From Bacteroidota bacterium (GTDB lineage: Bacteria; Bacteroidota; Bacteroidia; AKYH767-A; OLB10): 36,990 bases of DNA. The stretch's first letter is position 1. Every line of letters begins with the position of its first letter. The position numbers and the translations under genes were made by a program. Below the pieces are notes generated by a model. The model saw only the letters and a list, made by a program, of their open reading frames with translations, was not told the DNA's origin and searched no databases. Positions 21,225 through 36,762 of this stretch are shown here, piece by piece. The stretch covers positions 1 to 36,990 of the forward strand of contig JBDTVD010000003.1 of assembly GCA_040007375.1 (NCBI GenBank), in the 5' to 3' direction.

Positions 21225-21300
21225 AATTCTAAATTAGAAATTCTAAATTACAGGTAGTACTATTTCATTTATAATTTATAATTTATAATTTCTAATTTCT
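21225..21300. repeat. Two inverted heptamer tracts (AATTCTA/AATTAGA and AATTTAT/AATTTCT) between convergent genes, possible bidirectional terminator
   Basis: 21231-21250 is the reverse complement of 21279-21298 at 19/20 positions, with the palindrome TAGTACTA at 21255-21262. Confidence 0.8.
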
Positions 21301-23235: not shown

Positions 23236-24137
23236 TTTTTTAATAAATTACTAAAAGCTGATGACAGATCTTTATATAAAAAATCAAAACCTTCAGATTG
23301 TATTTTTTCTGAACTCACTCTGCTTCCTTCCAGAACTATAACAGATTTTTCACCCAGAAATAGTTTTAATAAAAATGCAGGAAAAGGAATTTTTACAGAA
23401 GGCCATTTAATAACTTTCTGCAGAGTATTCATAAAATCATAAAATGTAACAGGTGCCGGAGCAACAGCATTATACAAACCGTGTACTTTATCATTTTCTA
23501 TTGAAAATTTTAATAGTTCACTTAAATCATCAATGTGAATCCAGCTTTGATAATGTTTACCATTTCCGAAAATAGGTGCAACACCAAACCGTAGCGGAAG
23601 AAATAGCTGTGGAAATGCGCCTCCTTTTTCTGATAATACAATTCCAAATCTGCAGATAACAGTTCTGCATGAAAAATGACTGTTTGCTTCCTCCCATTTT
23701 TTTACAACGCTTCCCAGGAAATCATCTGCTAAAGTTATGCTATCTTCTTTCTGCCACGCTGCACCTTCATCTTTATATATACCAATTGCAGATGCGCAAA
23801 TCACAGCCTTAACATTGTTCGGTATTTCATTTAATTTTTTTTGTAATAAAGAAGTTGATTCTATCCTGCTGTCGATAATTTTTTTCTTGTATGAATCCGT
23901 CCATCTGTGATCAGCCAGATTTTCACCGGCAAGATGAATGATATAGTCAGCATTTGCAATGGCTTCCGGATCTATAGTTCCGGATTTTGGATTCCATATA
24001 TATTGATGAACATCAGGAATATTTTTTTTACTTCTTCCAACCCAGGAAACAGCATAGTGTTTACTTAAAAGATGAGTGAGATGTCTGCCAATCATTCCGC
24101 TTCCTCCGGTGATAAGAATATTTATTTTTTTAGTCAT
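23232..24137 (-). CDS. TIGR01777/YfcH-like NAD(P)-dependent epimerase family oxidoreductase
   Basis: ITGGSGMIG, HLAGE..W, SAIGIY, WIHIDD and YNAVAP. Confidence 0.9.
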   Translation of the reverse strand: MTKKINILITGGSGMIGRHLTHLLSKHYAVSWVGRSKKNIPDVHQYIWNPKSGTIDPEAIANADYIIHLAGENLADHRWTDSYKKKIIDSRIESTSLLQKKLNEIPNNVKAVICASAIGIYKDEGAAWQKEDSITLADDFLGSVVKKWEEANSHFSCRTVICRFGIVLSEKGGAFPQLFLPLRFGVAPIFGNGKHYQSWIHIDDLSELLKFSIENDKVHGLYNAVAPAPVTFYDFMNTLQKVIKWPSVKIPFPAFLLKLFLGEKSVIVLEGSRVSSEKIQSEGFDFLYKDLSSAFSNLLKK

Positions 24138-24166
24138 CAATAAAAATTAATAATTGAAGTTAACTT

Positions 24167-24240
24167 CGATATTCGTTATTCTTTGCTTTTCATTCTTCGT
24201 ATTCATTTTTCATGAAGGAGAAGAACGATATTTGTTATTC
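24167..24240 (-). repeat. 15-bp direct repeat built from heptamers (GAATAAC RAATATC G on the minus strand)
   Basis: cgatattcgttattc at 24167-24181 versus cgatatttgttattc at 24226-24240 (14/15). The second abuts the 24241 stop. Confidence 0.65.
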
Positions 24241-25224
24241 CTAGTTCTCCGGTATTTCAGGATCAGCGTTTATAAAATCAGCAGGATCAAAATCCAAAAT
24301 GGGAGCGACGTTTGTTCTTTTTCCAAACTTATACCTAATCATCACTCTAACAAATGCAGAGGAACTTATATCATATTTCTCTTCACCAAGCTGTACCCAT
24401 GATCGACCTGAAATTCCAATATCCGGTTCTACAGAAAGTTGATAAGATATTTTTAATTTCATCTTAAAGGCCAACTGAAATTCTTTATGACGGAACTTTA
24501 CATCTTCAAGAACAAGACTGTCATTAACAGGAAGATTTACAGTATACATTCCTCCAAAAGGCCGTAGTGAAACTCCTGCAGCAAAACGGCGGCTGAAAAA
24601 ATGTGTGTACTGAACATAAGCAGGAAACATAAATGTGATAAGATCTTCTTTCAATGGTCTCCAACTGATTCCTGCAAGAGGAAGAATTTTGTTGCTTCCA
24701 AAAACGGATGTATATACTGCTCCCAGTGTATATGAAAACTGATCATTGCTTCTATGTCTCCAGAATAAACTTCCATTTACATAGGTTCCTTTGAAATTGA
24801 AAAAAGATGCGTAATCATGTGCATTTATTCCCTGTACATTCAGCATATATAAATTACGAAGTCCTTTGGAATATATAAAGCTTCCTCCAAGCCGTAATCG
24901 TAATAATTGTAAGCTGTCAGGAATAAAATCACCTGCAGGTTGTAAATAAGATACTGCACCTTGCAACGTAACTCCCACCAAAGGTGTATTTCCTGTTGAT
25001 GTTAACCAGTCTTTCCCACGATATAACGGAATATTAAATGATCCTTCTCCACGATAATAGCCAAACTTATTTTCAAAGGTATCTACCTGGCTGGCTATTC
25101 TGTCTTCAGTATTTATTTTAATCCACGATGATAACAATGGATGTGGTCCGGGCCATACCTGCGACTGCGATTGAATCGTAATTAAAACAAGGAAAGCAGA
25201 AAGAATTAAGCTATTTTTGATCAT
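24241..25224 (-). CDS. Hypothetical outer-membrane beta-barrel protein (DUF6268-like)
   Basis: Signal peptide, amphipathic strands, and LGAVY...LPLAGISW pattern. Confidence 0.65.
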   Translation of the reverse strand: MIKNSLILSAFLVLITIQSQSQVWPGPHPLLSSWIKINTEDRIASQVDTFENKFGYYRGEGSFNIPLYRGKDWLTSTGNTPLVGVTLQGAVSYLQPAGDFIPDSLQLLRLRLGGSFIYSKGLRNLYMLNVQGINAHDYASFFNFKGTYVNGSLFWRHRSNDQFSYTLGAVYTSVFGSNKILPLAGISWRPLKEDLITFMFPAYVQYTHFFSRRFAAGVSLRPFGGMYTVNLPVNDSLVLEDVKFRHKEFQLAFKMKLKISYQLSVEPDIGISGRSWVQLGEEKYDISSSAFVRVMIRYKFGKRTNVAPILDFDPADFINADPEIPEN

Positions 25225-25263
25225 CAGTAATTAACGGTAAAAGTAACTGATTGTTTTTTTACA

Positions 25264-25608
25264 ATGCTTCCTGAAAAAAAAGAAAATAGCGAACTGTCAA
25301 CACATCGTTTTAATAAGGAAATTATTGAAGCGGTAATTGCTCAATTGGAAAAGGATGTAATGATGTGTGGAGGTGATCTTAAGATTACTGAAGCATCATA
25401 CACTGATCTGGAATTATTAAAGGAAGAAGTTCAGAAGTATCTTTCATCTGTATCAGATAAAAATCCCACTTTGTTATTTAACCTGTTATACCGGATTGAT
25501 ATTCCACAAAAGATGCTGGATCAAAAAAACGGAAGCTTAGGAACGCTGGTATTGAAAAGAGAATTGACGAAAGTGCTGATCAGGATTTCTTATAAGAAAA
25601 GTGATTAA
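25264..25608 (+). CDS. Conserved-looking hypothetical protein
   Basis: 114 aa with QLEKD...LFNLLYRIDIP...LKREL.KV pattern, which resembles a small Bacteroidota family. Confidence 0.75.
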   Translation: MLPEKKENSELSTHRFNKEIIEAVIAQLEKDVMMCGGDLKITEASYTDLELLKEEVQKYLSSVSDKNPTLLFNLLYRIDIPQKMLDQKNGSLGTLVLKRELTKVLIRISYKKSD

Positions 25609-25635
25609 ATGATTAGGTGATTAAGTAATTAGGTG
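25601..25635 (+). repeat. Octamer tandem tract GTGATTAA/ATGATTAG/GTGATTAA/GTAATTAG
   Basis: Four 8-bp units, the first containing the stop codon of the 25264 ORF. Confidence 0.8.
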
Positions 25636-25650
25636 TATTGTCAGAAATGA

Positions 25651-25704
25651 CTACTCTTTTAATTCAAAATTCTATCACAAATAAATTTATAACTCGTTCA
25701 TCAT
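25651..25704 (-). pseudogene. Degenerate duplicate of the lptB 3' end
   Basis: About 43/56 identity by hand alignment to 26209-26264, with exact blocks ttaattcaaaattct (15 nt) and gttcatcat (9 nt). Ends in NFELKE* versus lptB NFELRK*. Confidence 0.8.
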
Positions 25705-25736
25705 TGAGGGAGATATTGTTGAGGCGGCCAATATAA

Positions 25737-26204
25737 TTATTGACAAATAAATCTGAAAACTGTCATTGGTCTGGGTTCATCCTCATATATATATTTATCC
25801 ACTAAATCTGAATACATATTTTCCGGAGGCTTTCGGTATTGCTCATAGATTTTAATGCTATAGAACTTTACCTCTGTTCCTGATGTACATTTGTTAAGAA
25901 CCTGAATATAAGAGTCAGGTAATTTACTTCCGGTTACATGAAGTATTGTGTCGACACTATTTGAAGCATCATGAATAGAGACCTCATAGGACACAATCCT
26001 TACTGTATCTTTTCTTAAATTTTTACCAGAACGATATTTGACGGATAACTCCTTAACCATAAAGACAGGGAAGTCTGGGTGACTATGAGGATTTCTTGGT
26101 AAAAATATTATATCTGGAAGAGGGATATTATCAGTTTTAGGGGACTCCTGAGCTGATGAAGCTTTAAAAAGAAATATAAATACGATTGCCAGGAATCGGT
26201 TCAT
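25737..26204 (-). CDS. Hypothetical secreted protein, possibly GldM/PorM C-terminal-domain-like
   Basis: Signal peptide. The pattern PLPD...RIVSYEVSI...VTGSKL...LNKC.SG.EVKFYSIK recalls the last GldM domain (recognition only). Confidence 0.6.
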   Translation of the reverse strand: MNRFLAIVFIFLFKASSAQESPKTDNIPLPDIIFLPRNPHSHPDFPVFMVKELSVKYRSGKNLRKDTVRIVSYEVSIHDASNSVDTILHVTGSKLPDSYIQVLNKCTSGTEVKFYSIKIYEQYRKPPENMYSDLVDKYIYEDEPRPMTVFRFICQ

Positions 26205-26208
26205 TCAA

Positions 26209-26934
26209 TTACTTTCTTAATTCAAAATTCTGTCCGAGATAAACTTTACGTACCTGTTCATCATCGGCCAGCTCCTGTGCTGTTCCTTCTTTTAAAATTT
26301 TTCCTTCAAATAAAAGATAAGCACGATCGGTTATTAATAATGTTTCATGCACGTTGTGATCGGTAATTAATATACCAATGTTTTTTTCTTTCAAACGAAA
26401 TACAATAGACTGAATATCTTCCACTGCAATTGGATCGACTCCAGCAAATGGTTCATCAAGCAAAATAAATTTAGGATTAACAGCAAGTGCGCGCGCAATT
26501 TCCGTACGTCTTCTCTCACCACCTGATAATAAATCACCACGGCTTTTACGGATGCGTTGTAATCCGAATTCACTTAATAAACTTTCCAGCGTTGTATCCT
26601 GTTCTGCTTTACTCTGTGCAGTCATTTCAAGAACTGCTTTTATATTATCCTCAACAGTAAGTTTTCTAAAAACAGATGCTTCCTGAGCAAGATAACCAAT
26701 ACCACGTTGTGCACGTTTATACATTGGAAGTGATGTGATCTCTTCATTATCCAGAAATATTCTTCCTTCATTAGGTTTGATCAATCCAACTGTCATGTAA
26801 AAAGTAGTTGTTTTACCAGCACCATTTGGTCCAAGCAATCCAACAATTTCTCCCTGCTTTACATTAATGGAAACATTGTCCACTACTGTGCGGCCTTTAT
26901 ATCTTTTAACTAAATTATCAGATCTTAATAGCAT
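26209..26934 (-). CDS. lptB: LPS export ABC transporter ATP-binding protein
   Basis: [38 protein letters not shown] and ITDHNV. Confidence 0.97.
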
Positions 26935-26935
26935 C

Positions 26936-26970
26936 TACGAATACGAATCTGTACGAATTTACGAATGAAT
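26936..26970. repeat. TACGAA(T) tandem tract immediately upstream of lptB
   Basis: Four TACGAA cores within about 30 bp, 1 nt from the lptB start codon. Confidence 0.75.
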
Positions 26971-26990
26971 TATTTCCTGAGAGAAATTAA

Positions 26991-27054
26991 TTATTAATTA
27001 TTCATTTTTCATTATTAATTAAAATACAAGTTGCAGGGTTGCTCTGAATCCGAA
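26991..27054 (-). repeat. Direct-repeat copy of the DUF5686 gene 3' end (36 bp) plus four heptamers
   Basis: 27019-27054 matches 27165-27200 at 34/36. Heptamer tract 26991-27018 parallels 27137-27164. Offset is 146 bp. Confidence 0.93.
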
Positions 27055-27136
27055 ACAATCGAATGAATAATTAAAAATTGAATACATCTAAATTAATAAG
27101 TAAGGACGAATGGTTAATATTTAAAAACAAATTTAA

Positions 27137-27164
27137 TTCTTAATTCTTAATTATTAATTCTTCA
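27137..27164 (-). repeat. Heptamer tract (TTCTTAA)2 TTATTAA TTCTTCA abutting the stop codon
   Basis: Four 7-bp units directly adjacent to the stop at 27165. Confidence 0.85.
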
Positions 27165-29675
27165 TTAAAACACAAGTTGCAGGCTTGCTCTGAATCCGAA
27201 CTGTGTTGGCACCGTTGCTTTTTCTCCAAACCGTTCTTTATATAATATTTTGTAGGGTTCATCTATATAAGTTAACCTCCAGATAAAATCAACACGCAGC
27301 ACCTTCAATATATTTTCCACTCCTGCACTTACTTCTGTATATGGTTTTGTTAAAGATGAAAACGCATTTGGGTTGGTTAATATTTCACGGTTAGCATTAC
27401 TCAGACTTCCACTTATTGCTTTAATACCCACAATTTCTCTCCATTTCAACTTGCGCATCAGTGGAACTTTATCAAAGAAGAAACCATCGAAGTGATGTGT
27501 TGCAAATACGCTGACATAATAATCACTTACAAATTCAAAATAGTTCATCATGTTGAATGCTGCATAATCATAAAAATAACTTTCATTTCCCGGATGTACT
27601 TCCAGCAATGGATAGGGAATTGTTCCCCAGATTCTTCCTGCCTGAACAACATAATAGGTATAACCAAATGGTTTGATTTTAATCTGGTCGTCAATTTTGA
27701 TAGTGACTTTATGATAATCAAAATCACTTTTCAGAAAATCTTTTATTCCTGCAACATAATTAACCTGCAATGTTGGATATGCACTTCCAATACTGATCCT
27801 GTCCGATCTTCCGGTAACAAATTTTTCACGATAGAGAAAACGGGTATATAAGGAAACCTCTGTGGAACTGATAGTGTTTTTAATTGCAGTTTTTTCATCA
27901 TTGGTGTAATACGAATAATTCAAACTGCCCAATGGATCAAAATCAGTATGTGTAAGAGTAATTTTATTGGAGAAACCTGGAAGCCATTCAATTTCATACC
28001 ATGCTTTCTGTTGCTCCATGTGTGTGAGTTTATCAGCCGGAGATCGACGGAATAAACTTGTTAATATATTATCATCCTGAAATGCATTATCACTTTGACC
28101 TAATTGCTGCACATCATTTTTATATCCTGCACCGGCAAACTGTCGCGGCTTTTTAGAAAGCATATATTTTATTCCGCCACCATATTTAAATTCTTCATCC
28201 TTTGTACCATAAGCAAGATAACTGCTCAGTTGCAATCGTGTGCTGAAATTATCACTTGTTCGTCCGCCAAAACGAAAACGAGCACCTTCCACTGCATTAA
28301 AACTAAAGAAGGTATAATAAGGTCCAAGTTCAAATTTTCCAATCTCTTTGTATCCTGTAAAAAATAAAGTAATGATATCAACATAACTTTTAAAAGCAGG
28401 CAATGTTTTAATAGTATCTACCATGTGATAGATTTTCTGTTCGCGTTCATTGAGACTATCATGTCGTGAATCTTTCCAGAAATCAACTGTTCGGTTTAAC
28501 GCATCATCAACCACCACTATATTTTCTGATCCATCAAAAATAGCATCGCTTATAGGTTGATTAAAAATAAATCCTTTGTATGATGTAGATTTTCTGCCAA
28601 TGAAACCCATTCCATCTTCCTTAGCAGCAAAATCAATTACAAGCATATCCTTGTTCTGCATCCATTGCTTACCATCAACATAGGTATATTCCTGCACAAT
28701 GGCCATGTCGTCAATCCAGTTGATATTTGCATCCTGTGCAATACGCATCTGTATTTTTTTTACAGCCCAGGTAGTATCGTTCACCCAGAAATCACCAGTG
28801 AAAGTAAGCTCCTGCGGACGTCGTGGTTTGAATTTTAATTTATAGCACCACTGATTGTCAATTGTAGTGCTGTCGATGAGATAATAACGATAATATAATA
28901 AACCAAGATCACTGATCGGACTTACGAAAGCTTTATTAAATATATCGATATAATTCTGATATATATTAACGCGTTGATACATGTCGCCAAGAAACTGTGT
29001 AACAGAAGCATTTTCCAATCCGGAAATTTTACTGGCTTTAATAATTTCTTTTTTATTTTTCGGATTGTTGCGGAAATAAAAATCAGAAAGTGTTTCTGAA
29101 ATAAAGAATGGAAGAAAAGGTTTGCTGTTTGTTTCTGTGCTGTCAACGTTATCCCAGATAAATGCAAATGGCTTTAATAATTTTTTGCCTTTGAATTTCT
29201 CACTGATGTTGGTAAGATCAAATTCTACTTTATTATATACTTCATATTGATACGACTGCAAATTGGAAGGATCATTTTCATCTTTATGTTTAATAATATT
29301 CCTTACTATAATATTTGCAGGATTTTCACCTGCTTTTATTTCAACTTCATGCAGATCAGACTGACTTGATTTCAGGGAGAAGTTAATTGTTTGAGCTTGT
29401 CCTTTTCTTATCCGGAGAGCAACTGTTTTGTATCCGATGAGTGTACATATTAAACTGTCAGATGGCGTTGAAGTGATGATGCGGTAATTACCATCCATAT
29501 CAGTATTGGTTCCGGCCTGCATTCCTTTCATCACAACAGTTGCAAAAGGAATCGGTTCATTGGTAAGTTCGTCAGTTACCTTTCCACTGATATTGGTTAC
29601 CTGCGAAAATCCGGTTAGTGTAAGTAAACAAAGCAAAAGCAGAGGAAGGATCCTGTATTGTAAAAGATGTTGCAT
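27165..29675 (-). CDS. DUF5686-type outer-membrane protein with N-terminal carboxypeptidase-like regulatory domain
   Basis: ISGKVTD..TNEPIPFATV, GTNTDMDGNY, YQYEVYNK, SPIS..YYRY, NAVEGAR.R.GGRT, GVENILK and terminal Phe. Confidence 0.85.
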   Translation of the reverse strand: MQHLLQYRILPLLLLCLLTLTGFSQVTNISGKVTDELTNEPIPFATVVMKGMQAGTNTDMDGNYRIITSTPSDSLICTLIGYKTVALRIRKGQAQTINFSLKSSQSDLHEVEIKAGENPANIIVRNIIKHKDENDPSNLQSYQYEVYNKVEFDLTNISEKFKGKKLLKPFAFIWDNVDSTETNSKPFLPFFISETLSDFYFRNNPKNKKEIIKASKISGLENASVTQFLGDMYQRVNIYQNYIDIFNKAFVSPISDLGLLYYRYYLIDSTTIDNQWCYKLKFKPRRPQELTFTGDFWVNDTTWAVKKIQMRIAQDANINWIDDMAIVQEYTYVDGKQWMQNKDMLVIDFAAKEDGMGFIGRKSTSYKGFIFNQPISDAIFDGSENIVVVDDALNRTVDFWKDSRHDSLNEREQKIYHMVDTIKTLPAFKSYVDIITLFFTGYKEIGKFELGPYYTFFSFNAVEGARFRFGGRTSDNFSTRLQLSSYLAYGTKDEEFKYGGGIKYMLSKKPRQFAGAGYKNDVQQLGQSDNAFQDDNILTSLFRRSPADKLTHMEQQKAWYEIEWLPGFSNKITLTHTDFDPLGSLNYSYYTNDEKTAIKNTISSTEVSLYTRFLYREKFVTGRSDRISIGSAYPTLQVNYVAGIKDFLKSDFDYHKVTIKIDDQIKIKPFGYTYYVVQAGRIWGTIPYPLLEVHPGNESYFYDYAAFNMMNYFEFVSDYYVSVFATHHFDGFFFDKVPLMRKLKWREIVGIKAISGSLSNANREILTNPNAFSSLTKPYTEVSAGVENILKVLRVDFIWRLTYIDEPYKILYKERFGEKATVPTQFGFRASLQLVF

Positions 29676-29698
29676 AGTTGTCAGTAACTCTTCCTGTT

Positions 29699-30058
29699 TT
29701 AACGCTTATTATCTTCCAAAGTTATTAATTCTTCCCAGTATTCAAGAGCCCGGCGTGTATGAGGTATAACGATAGTACCACCTACGAGATTGGCTACCAT
29801 GAAGATTTCAAAAAGCTCGTCCGTAGTAAGACCAGCATCACGGCATTTCTCAAGGTGATATTTTATACAGTCATCACATCGCAAAACCATGCTCGAAACA
29901 AGACCCAGCATTTCTTTTGTTTTAACGGAAAGCACTCCATCTGCATAAGTATTTGTATCAAGATTGTAGAGTCTTTTGATATTAATATTCCCCTGACTAA
30001 GGATCTTATCATTCATTTTCGAACGATAGTTGTTGAAGTCAGTTACAGCTTTACTCAT
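29699..30058 (-). CDS. Carboxymuconolactone decarboxylase (AhpD-like) family protein
   Basis: KTKEMLGLVSSMVLRCDDCIKYH with a CxxC motif. Confidence 0.9.
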   Translation of the reverse strand: MSKAVTDFNNYRSKMNDKILSQGNINIKRLYNLDTNTYADGVLSVKTKEMLGLVSSMVLRCDDCIKYHLEKCRDAGLTTDELFEIFMVANLVGGTIVIPHTRRALEYWEELITLEDNKR

Positions 30059-30962: not shown

Positions 30963-30970
30963 TTATATAT

Positions 30971-31005
30971 AATTTTGAATTTATAATTTTGAATTTATAA
31001 TTCTT
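30971..31005 (-). repeat. Heptamer tract AATTTTG/AATTTAT x2 plus AATTCTT abutting the kdsD stop
   Basis: Five 7-bp units directly adjacent to the stop at 31006. Confidence 0.85.
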
Positions 31006-36713: not shown

Positions 36714-36762
36714 TAAATCGTAAATCGTACTTCGTAAATCGTACTTCGTAAATCGTACCTCA
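36714..36762 (-). repeat. Heptamer tract TAAATCG/TACTTCG x7
   Basis: TAAATCG TAAATCG TACTTCG TAAATCG TACTTCG TAAATCG TACCTCA, 3 nt from the stop at 36766. Confidence 0.92.

Follow-up and report, generated by a model that had tools for sequence, protein, structure and literature searches.

Second copies of two adjacent gene ends in a Bacteroidota genome as possible scars of general recombination

In this study, we analyzed a 36,990-nucleotide (nt) stretch of DNA, hereafter the window, which is the entire contig C3 (JBDTVD010000003.1) of the draft genome bin G000 of a soil Bacteroidota bacterium (assembly GCA_040007375.1), and focused on two adjacent minus-strand genes, a DUF5686-family gene and lptB, both of which are followed downstream by a second copy of their own last codons. 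Comparison with relatives indicated that DNA was inserted in this lineage behind each of the two conserved genes, one insertion adding 110 nt and the other a whole open reading frame (ORF) of 155 amino acids (aa). With moderate confidence, we regard both as scars of general recombination or repair that were additive, one-sided and filtered by selection, and not as the work of a dedicated element. The bin comprises 467 contigs and 3.72 Mb at 36.6% G+C and is 88% complete; the genomes used for comparison included G001 and G002, of the same genus, and G030, a closed genome of the same order. The features of the locus are listed below, with tracts as called by Tandem Repeats Finder (TRF).

27165-29675, minus strand: DUF5686-family gene with a CarboxypepD_reg domain, 836 aa, resident gene 1 (Pfam PF18939, E 2.1e-79)
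27165-27200, minus strand: live 3' terminus of the DUF5686 gene (last 11 codons and the stop), forming the upstream repeat copy (repeat finder, alignment)
27130-27164, minus strand: heptamer tract directly behind the live stop, within the 71-nt repeat (TRF 27133-27166, period 7, 4.9 copies)
27055-27129, no strand: 75-nt filler separating the two DUF5686-end copies (genome search)
27019-27054, minus strand: stranded copy of the DUF5686 end, 34/36 nt, frame and stop intact (alignment)
26984-27018, minus strand: heptamer tract behind the stranded DUF5686 copy (TRF 26986-27021)
26935-26967, minus strand: TACGAAT-type tract immediately preceding the lptB start (TRF; near-identical tracts on many contigs)
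26209-26934, minus strand: lptB, ABC ATPase, 241 aa, resident gene 2 (Pfam ABC_tran, E 4.1e-36)
26209-26265, minus strand: live 3' terminus of lptB (last 18 codons and the stop), forming the upstream repeat copy (repeat finder, alignment)
25737-26204, minus strand: inserted 155-aa ORF, beginning 4 nt past the lptB stop (ORF call, no Pfam family)
25709-25736, no strand: unique spacer from the stop of the 155-aa ORF to the stranded lptB end (alignment)
25651-25708 (approximate), minus strand: stranded, decayed copy of the lptB end, about 73% identity over 57 nt, interrupted by three small gaps and two in-frame stops
25599-25635, no strand: octamer tract between the stranded lptB end and the convergent gene (TRF, period 8, 4.6 copies)
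25264-25608, plus strand: convergent 114-aa gene, also conserved in G001 (86% aa identity) and G002, where the ancestral locus ends on the right

At the DUF5686 gene, the repeat finder reported a 71-nt direct repeat (26984-27054 versus 27130-27200) with 86% identity and a spacing of 146, each copy of which consisted of 36 nt of gene end and 35 nt of A/T-rich heptamer tract. The two gene ends, whose alignment scored 31, enclose the tract 27130-27164 and the filler. The stranded copy lies outside every ORF of at least 40 aa, and differed from the live end by one silent change and one Ser-to-Thr replacement. At lptB, the alignment score was 24, the ungapped core of the repeat was 37 nt with 81% identity, and the pair encloses the ORF 25737-26204. 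An earlier reading of this DNA, made from the sequence alone, had claimed that both genes possess downstream copies of their last codons; both copies were real (12 and 19 codons if the stop is included) and enclosed 110 nt and a whole ORF as it had stated, but the copy of lptB proved to be decayed rather than intact. Judging from the similarity of the copies (94% for DUF5686 versus about 73% for lptB), the two events are evidently of different age.

Analysis of the relatives revealed empty sites at both positions. In G001 (lptB 93% identical in aa by tblastn) and G002 (88%), the order was DUF5686, lptB, convergent gene and DUF6268 gene, without the 155-aa ORF, and the distance from the lptB stop to the convergent-gene stop was 16 and 12 nt, respectively. 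The spacer between DUF5686 and lptB was 230 nt here versus 80 nt in G001. The lptB gene was detected in 39 of the 41 genomes searched (G000 and 40 relatives), and its end duplication occurred in none of 29 relatives (maximum score 11.5); likewise, a DUF5686-end duplication was found in none of 15 relatives' loci with a spacer longer than 40 nt (maximum score 8.0). Thus, the empty alleles that the earlier reading had expected in close relatives were present. By eye, both stranded copies appeared closer to the live ends of G000 than to the ends of G001, and the tract sequence after the stranded DUF5686 copy resembled the G001 spacer. The last 57 nt of the live lptB were 84% identical to G001, compared with 81.5% for the whole gene.

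From the stranded lptB end to the stop of the convergent gene there are 44 nt, including 27 nt of octamer tract and 15 nt of spacer. The convergent gene also takes its final three codons and its stop (25597-25608) from this tract; its G001 orthologue stops three codons earlier and has no tract there. Since the relatives' spacers measured only 16 and 12 nt, and 27 of the 44 nt were tract absent from G001, the stranded copy sits where the ancestral end would have been; judged from these distances it is the old end of lptB in its ancestral position, which agreed with the earlier proposal that old ends had been left stranded.

With regard to the assembly, parts of the stretch were contained in three public runs (X1-X3) of one rhizosphere study, in which the cover was patchy and low and the uncovered parts were uninformative. 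These runs are probably the sample source of the bin and hence represent a second assembler rather than an independent sample. One Logan contig (26838-27258, 0 differences) spanned both DUF5686 copies and the filler, two others (26059-26322 with 0 differences and 26051-26346 with 1) covered the lptB stop and the start of the 155-aa ORF, and another (25658-25904, 0 differences) ran from the stranded lptB end into the ORF. It might be argued that two strain alleles of one gene end were chained into a single contig, as the source is a fragmented metagenome bin and related contigs occur in the same runs. However, no exact match between the DUF5686 copies exceeds 16 nt and the lptB copies are only about 73% alike, too little for k-mer assembly to confuse them, and the second assembler bridged all junctions with 0-1 differences; an artefact, the possibility that the earlier reading had named against itself, is thus very unlikely. 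Beside contigs with 0 differences, X2 contained contigs about 85-90% identical to the window (25437-25619 and 26411-26547), and those with about 90% identity possibly come from a co-occurring related strain or species, that is, from potential donors. A 35-nt degenerate lptB pattern retrieved one metagenome contig, whose lptB was 66% identical and of no use as a closer relative.

The enclosed 155-aa ORF had no Pfam family and no relative but itself among 5.8 billion protein clusters, and a search of 1.8 billion representatives yielded a single credible homologue (E 1e-10, 35%) besides a low-complexity match. Within the order it was present in 2 of 146 genomes, G000 included; the other carrier, G127 (E 2.6e-8), encodes a 220-aa secreted protein in a different gene context. 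The ORF aligned to the C-terminal half of two proteins of about 220-230 aa only. Its N-terminus appeared signal-peptide-like by eye, and its codon score was positive, at the 7th percentile among small genes. We read it as a probably real, horizontally acquired gene. The order-wide, 5.8-billion-cluster and 1.8-billion-representative searches did not find the donor DNA. An AlphaFold model based on a three-sequence alignment had a mean predicted local distance difference test score (pLDDT) of 50.2, which was too poor for use.

To assess frequency, we called 2541 ORF-based genes and, for 2279 of these, aligned the terminal 60 nt with the 2 kb that follow the gene. A score of at least 20 was reached by 10 of the 2279 gene ends, among which the two window pairs ranked 5th and 6th genome-wide, whereas the controls yielded 4 (another gene's downstream DNA), 3 (an internal gene piece) and 1 (the reverse complement of the downstream DNA, our chance control, also with 2279 genes). 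With 100-nt queries, 3 kb and a score of at least 24, 11 of 2279 gene ends matched downstream versus 4 of 2163 gene starts upstream; the other four control comparisons gave 4-8 matches, and several matches in every class were tandem paralogues. All-against-all BLAST detected 439 local direct repeat pairs within 4 kb, with a 3' end copied downstream only at 7 loci and a 5' end copied upstream only at 4. Gene-end duplications are therefore rare (<0.6% of genes), and the genome-wide enrichment anticipated by the earlier reading was present but small. In G030 (1.6 Mb), 9 of 1150 gene ends scored at least 24, and those examined were recent tandem segmental duplications; in G002 (0.75 Mb), 1 of 494 reached at least 20, a helicase gene end that occurs with its flank three times. 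This G002 locus (contig C23, about 1370-2020; L162) carries the final ~125 nt of a DEAD-box helicase gene, together with ~50 nt of flank, in three tandem units of ~265 nt.

Seven loci were judged to have a resident 3' end, one whole ORF and a downstream copy of the end:

lptB: encloses the 155-aa orphan; repeat 57 nt
GT2 glycosyltransferase: encloses a Fic protein; repeat 99 nt, 90%
DUF1801 gene: encloses a protein with a type IX secretion system (T9SS) tail; repeat 78 nt
M61 peptidase: encloses a single-domain response regulator; repeat 138 nt, 77%
LuxR-type regulator: encloses a 1074-aa secreted protein; repeat 246 nt, 98%
Alanyl-tRNA-synthetase-like end: encloses a 387-aa lipoprotein; repeat about 100 nt
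T9SS protein: encloses a KilA-N protein; repeat cut by the contig end

Four more events had no enclosed ORF (DUF5686 and those on contigs C87, C286 and C263). The repeats were 24-246 nt long across events (57-246 nt for single-ORF events) and ended 0-38 nt past the stop, with cargo in either orientation. We saw no shared boundary motif when 8 events were aligned and compared by eye, and no inserted ORF that had a stranded 5' end on its upstream side. The cargo families (orphan, Fic, KilA-N, response regulator and secreted proteins) were unrelated. For the Fic case, G002 has the GT2 gene adjoining the mannose-1-phosphate guanylyltransferase gene, that is, an empty site. At the DNA level, C405 and C32 gave only short or paralogous matches in G001 and G002, and neither genome yielded the DUF1801 protein of C405; the alanyl-tRNA-synthetase case, compared with G002, showed C-termini of different length and gave no polarisation.

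Some of these loci deserve a closer description. On C182 (1694-5155; L037), the Fic gene lies between the GT2 gene and the mannose-1-phosphate guanylyltransferase gene and is followed by the 99-nt copy of the GT2 end, with differences that are almost all silent. On C32 (13101-17404; L036), the last 234 nt of the LuxR-type gene and a short flank recur 3.66 kb downstream, and three of three coding differences are silent. On C263 (about 1560-1830), there are three tandem units of ~100 nt, each an octamer tract plus a 45-nt G+C-rich segment, and the last codons of the gene enter the first unit.

The differences between live and stranded ends offer a test of origin: a copy made in place decays neutrally, whereas an allele from another lineage's working gene differs mostly silently. 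The differing codons of nine events were as follows:

C32: silent 3, replacing 0
C87: silent 3, replacing 0, including a stop-to-stop change
C182: silent 8, replacing 3
C459: silent 11, replacing 10, frame and stop intact over 34 codons
C461: silent 6, replacing 18
lptB: silent 2, replacing 8, with 2 stops
C286: silent 0, replacing 3
C405: silent 1, replacing 2
DUF5686: silent 1, replacing 1

Pooled over the nine events, 35 of 78 differing codons were silent, far above 0.20. A stricter null of 0.36 allows for silent changes arising in the live copy; against it, the four frame-keeping events, which were selected post hoc, had 25 silent of 38 (P 2e-4). When C182 was polarised by hand with G002, 8 changes could be assigned unambiguously to the stranded branch, of which 7 were silent (P 8e-5 against 0.2). 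From these patterns, we conclude that some events appear to have joined two alleles, as one-sided recombination with a relative's DNA would, and other events look like in-place copies or seem too old to tell.

Short tandem tracts are a general property of this genome. TRF reported 2338 arrays, including 775 of period 7 and 332 of period 8 that belong to few unit families and are mostly non-coding (668 of 775 and 247 of 332, respectively). By spacer type, arrays were found at 73/193 convergent, 195/974 co-directional and 23/227 divergent spacers, and those in co-directional spacers lay within 3 nt of a stop in 80 of 314 cases and within 3 nt of a start in 30 of 314. The window-type units recur on dozens of contigs. 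The region 25599-27166 contains four period-7/8 arrays, which bears out the earlier statement that tracts are dense there, and other window arrays include 21267-21298, 30968-31002 and 36714-36757. A period-7 excess was likewise found in G030 and G002 and is thus a trait of the lineage; on the other hand, G001 has no tracts at the two tract sites of the locus that were compared, implying that individual arrays turn over fast. In 7 of 11 events, one or more of the repeat copies had an array no further than 30 nt away, versus 374 of 2500 gene ends (15%; P 3e-4, or 0.02 against a doubled baseline). The predicted co-occurrence of duplications and tracts thus held for most events but failed in 4 of 11, with no tract nearby; the association is real but loose.

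Long simple sequence repeats are described from Beggiatoaceae, Cyanobacteria and some Bacteroidetes, with stops in all frames read forward (PMC4679880). The arrays here resemble them in the over-representation of periods 7-8, the mostly intergenic location and the few unit families, but most of the repeats reported there lie just upstream of starts, whereas ours occupy 3' flanks and abut stops, and the units differ.

As the earlier reading had noted, no integrase or transposase accompanies the duplications: a Pfam scan of 31 window ORFs detected no integrase or other recombinase, transposase or reverse transcriptase family. The genome-wide recombinase search, made with the PF00589 profile only, found two tyrosine recombinases (open frames of 302 and 327 aa). 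For RVT_1, no match in the whole genome exceeded the cut-off and there was one weak match below it. A Ku homologue is encoded in the genome.

From the repeats, the empty sites, the position of the old lptB end and the recombinase-free window, we infer a route by recombination, a role of selection and a role of the tracts. Two separate lineage-specific events would have added DNA directly behind a resident gene while the old end was retained: an older one may have placed about 500 nt with a horizontally acquired secreted-protein ORF behind lptB, and a recent one 110 nt behind the DUF5686 gene. The DNA could have entered by one-ended homologous recombination with DNA of a close relative and an illegitimate second joint, by a single crossover with a circularised fragment or, in the short event, by local duplication in a repeat-rich spacer. 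The tracts may make DNA breaks or mispairing more frequent in their vicinity. Events would be seen at 3' ends because only products with a complete gene and its promoter link survive.

Several points weigh against this explanation. The searches found no donor sequence that would reveal the type of joint and the route. The pooled silent excess was marginal against the stricter null (P 0.066 versus 0.36), the four frame-keeping events were chosen after the data had been seen, and the allele test was uninformative for both window events, with an lptB copy that looks neutrally decayed. In addition, two events in adjacent genes are mildly unlikely by chance (about 0.04 by a rough hand estimate), a purely unspecific process does not predict the tract association, and the events in G030 were tandem segmental duplications rather than single-gene additions; the single-gene type may be commoner in this genus. 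A bolder reading retains a low probability because of the tract association, the adjacency of the two events and the single-gene additions whose ends look like alleles. In this reading, 3' ends abutting tracts would be preferred entry points, in this genus, for recurrent, recombinase-independent acquisition of single genes; tracts would trigger breaks or pairing, and an allelic end plus a gene from a relative would be added rather than exchanged, so that the end of the other allele is stranded. If this were true, tract-linked entry would be a distributed, sequence-unspecific mechanism of cassette uptake.

Among the rivals, purely local events, that is, slippage, unequal crossing-over or staggered-break fill-in with captured filler (for example, by Ku end joining) and no homologous donor, seem rather unlikely. 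In their favor, intergenic duplications with units of 50-270 nt are numerous in G000 and G002, gene-end-plus-flank units occur on C286, C263 and C87 and in the triplicated G002 helicase end, the copies of lptB, C286 and C461 differ in a neutral-looking way, Ku is present and tracts could promote slippage or breaks. However, the DUF5686 insert is not a simple tandem duplication, as the 75 nt behind the first copy had no significant match in the sequence behind the second (P 0.13), and the silent-only differences in C182, C32 and C87 are unexpected for an in-place copy that decays neutrally. The sequence-only reading had instead proposed a dedicated trans-acting system, in which an enzyme encoded elsewhere integrates small cassettes at 3' ends together with a replacement end and often a tract. 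In its favor, seven single-ORF insertions are bracketed by a 3' end and none was seen bracketed by a 5' end, the cargo includes the mobile-type Fic and KilA-N, some stranded ends are allele-like, so that an end travelled with the cargo, tracts lie near 7 of 11 events, and binned genomes, this one at 88% completeness, often miss mobile elements. Nevertheless, selection alone yields a 3' bias, and we favor ordinary recombination because the events are rare, with a small excess over controls and similar rates in other genomes, because repeat length (24-246 nt), cargo families and cargo orientation are mixed, because no boundary motif was seen in the 8 aligned events, and because no recombinase family was found in the 31 window ORFs, with two tyrosine recombinases and no RVT_1 over the cut-off in the genome. 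The cassette system was thus not borne out, and we consider it improbable.

Decayed site-specific integrative elements, which would have carried their own integrase and a gene end in attP and later lost the integrase and most cargo, have only a slim chance of being the explanation. Foreign DNA lying between direct repeats that contain the target 3' end is the arrangement typical of attL/attR sites, and relatives have empty sites; still, about ten target genes would require as many integrase specificities in a genome with only two tyrosine recombinases, each insert holds one ORF or none and no integrase fragment was seen, and the DUF5686 insert is just 110 nt. A diversity-generating retroelement, with a variable region at a 3' end and its template repeat downstream, would also present a near-identical 3'-end copy shortly downstream. 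It is exceedingly unlikely here, given a window that lacks reverse transcriptases and a genome with none over the cut-off, two DUF5686 mismatches that are not adenine-specific, housekeeping targets and repeats of merely 36-57 nt.

Comparison with known systems gave partial likenesses. In attL/attR systems and their integrase-less derivatives, the cis-mobilisable elements located at the 3' ends of genes, repeats with the last codons likewise flank acquired DNA, the target gene remains whole and relatives have an empty site, but here there is no integrase, no shared core and a multitude of targets, and the inserts range from 110 nt to one ORF. In polymorphic toxin loci (Rhs and contact-dependent inhibition (CDI) orphan modules), a new end and small cargo are added and the old end is orphaned downstream; here, in contrast, both ends have nearly the same sequence rather than being alternative tips, and there is no toxin/immunity pair. 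Classical descriptions of illegitimate integration mostly report deletion of recipient DNA, not a stranded gene end. Homology-facilitated illegitimate recombination has one homologous and one illegitimate end, according to one report (PMC3240628), and another describes partial duplications generated by transformation (PMC3784515). Our events appear to share with homology-facilitated illegitimate or Campbell-type integration the foreign DNA beside a homologous anchor, part of which can be duplicated, and the lack of an element enzyme.

The two features provide a pair of dated examples in which an essential gene, lptB, would have gained a downstream neighbour without mobile-element machinery but with a footprint. 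Should silent-only stranded ends turn out to be widespread, they would offer an inexpensive genomic marker of additive recombination between relatives and could help to date and count single-gene gains. On the other hand, integrase-less gene-end duplications alone do not indicate a new integration system.

As for the surroundings, the locus sits in a minus-strand housekeeping block composed of TatC, a CMD-family gene, the DUF5686/CarboxypepD_reg gene, lptB and the 155-aa ORF, which is followed by the convergent gene on the plus strand and then the DUF6268 gene.

A transposon or insertion sequence was rejected as a candidate: the window ORFs include no transposase family, the duplications span 24-246 nt instead of a fixed length, and neither the filler nor the 155-aa ORF region has another full-length copy in the genome (for the filler 27055-27129, just A/T-rich matches of 14-20 nt were found). 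We also rejected a simple 146-nt tandem duplication at the DUF5686 gene, as the tail past the 71-nt repeat was collinear but its similarity not significant (local score 12 versus 9.9 +/- 1.7 in shuffles). An RNA or terminator role of the spacer was dismissed as well: the folding z-score was 0.31, Rfam gave nothing above noise over 24000-30000, no terminator-like sites were found in the spacer, and promoter-like sites numbered 6 versus 10.2 expected.

Finally, the public runs yielded two side observations. One low-depth X1 contig joins 26966 to 27142 and omits 175 nt, including the stranded DUF5686 copy; its shorter side is just 26 nt and both sides are tract sequence found genome-wide, so it could be an insert-free allele or another locus with the same tracts. 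Contig depth summed over 27123-27223 in X1-X3 was 240-2770 at the TTAATTC-type tract versus single digits elsewhere; the same tract is therefore very common in these metagenomes, beyond this genome.

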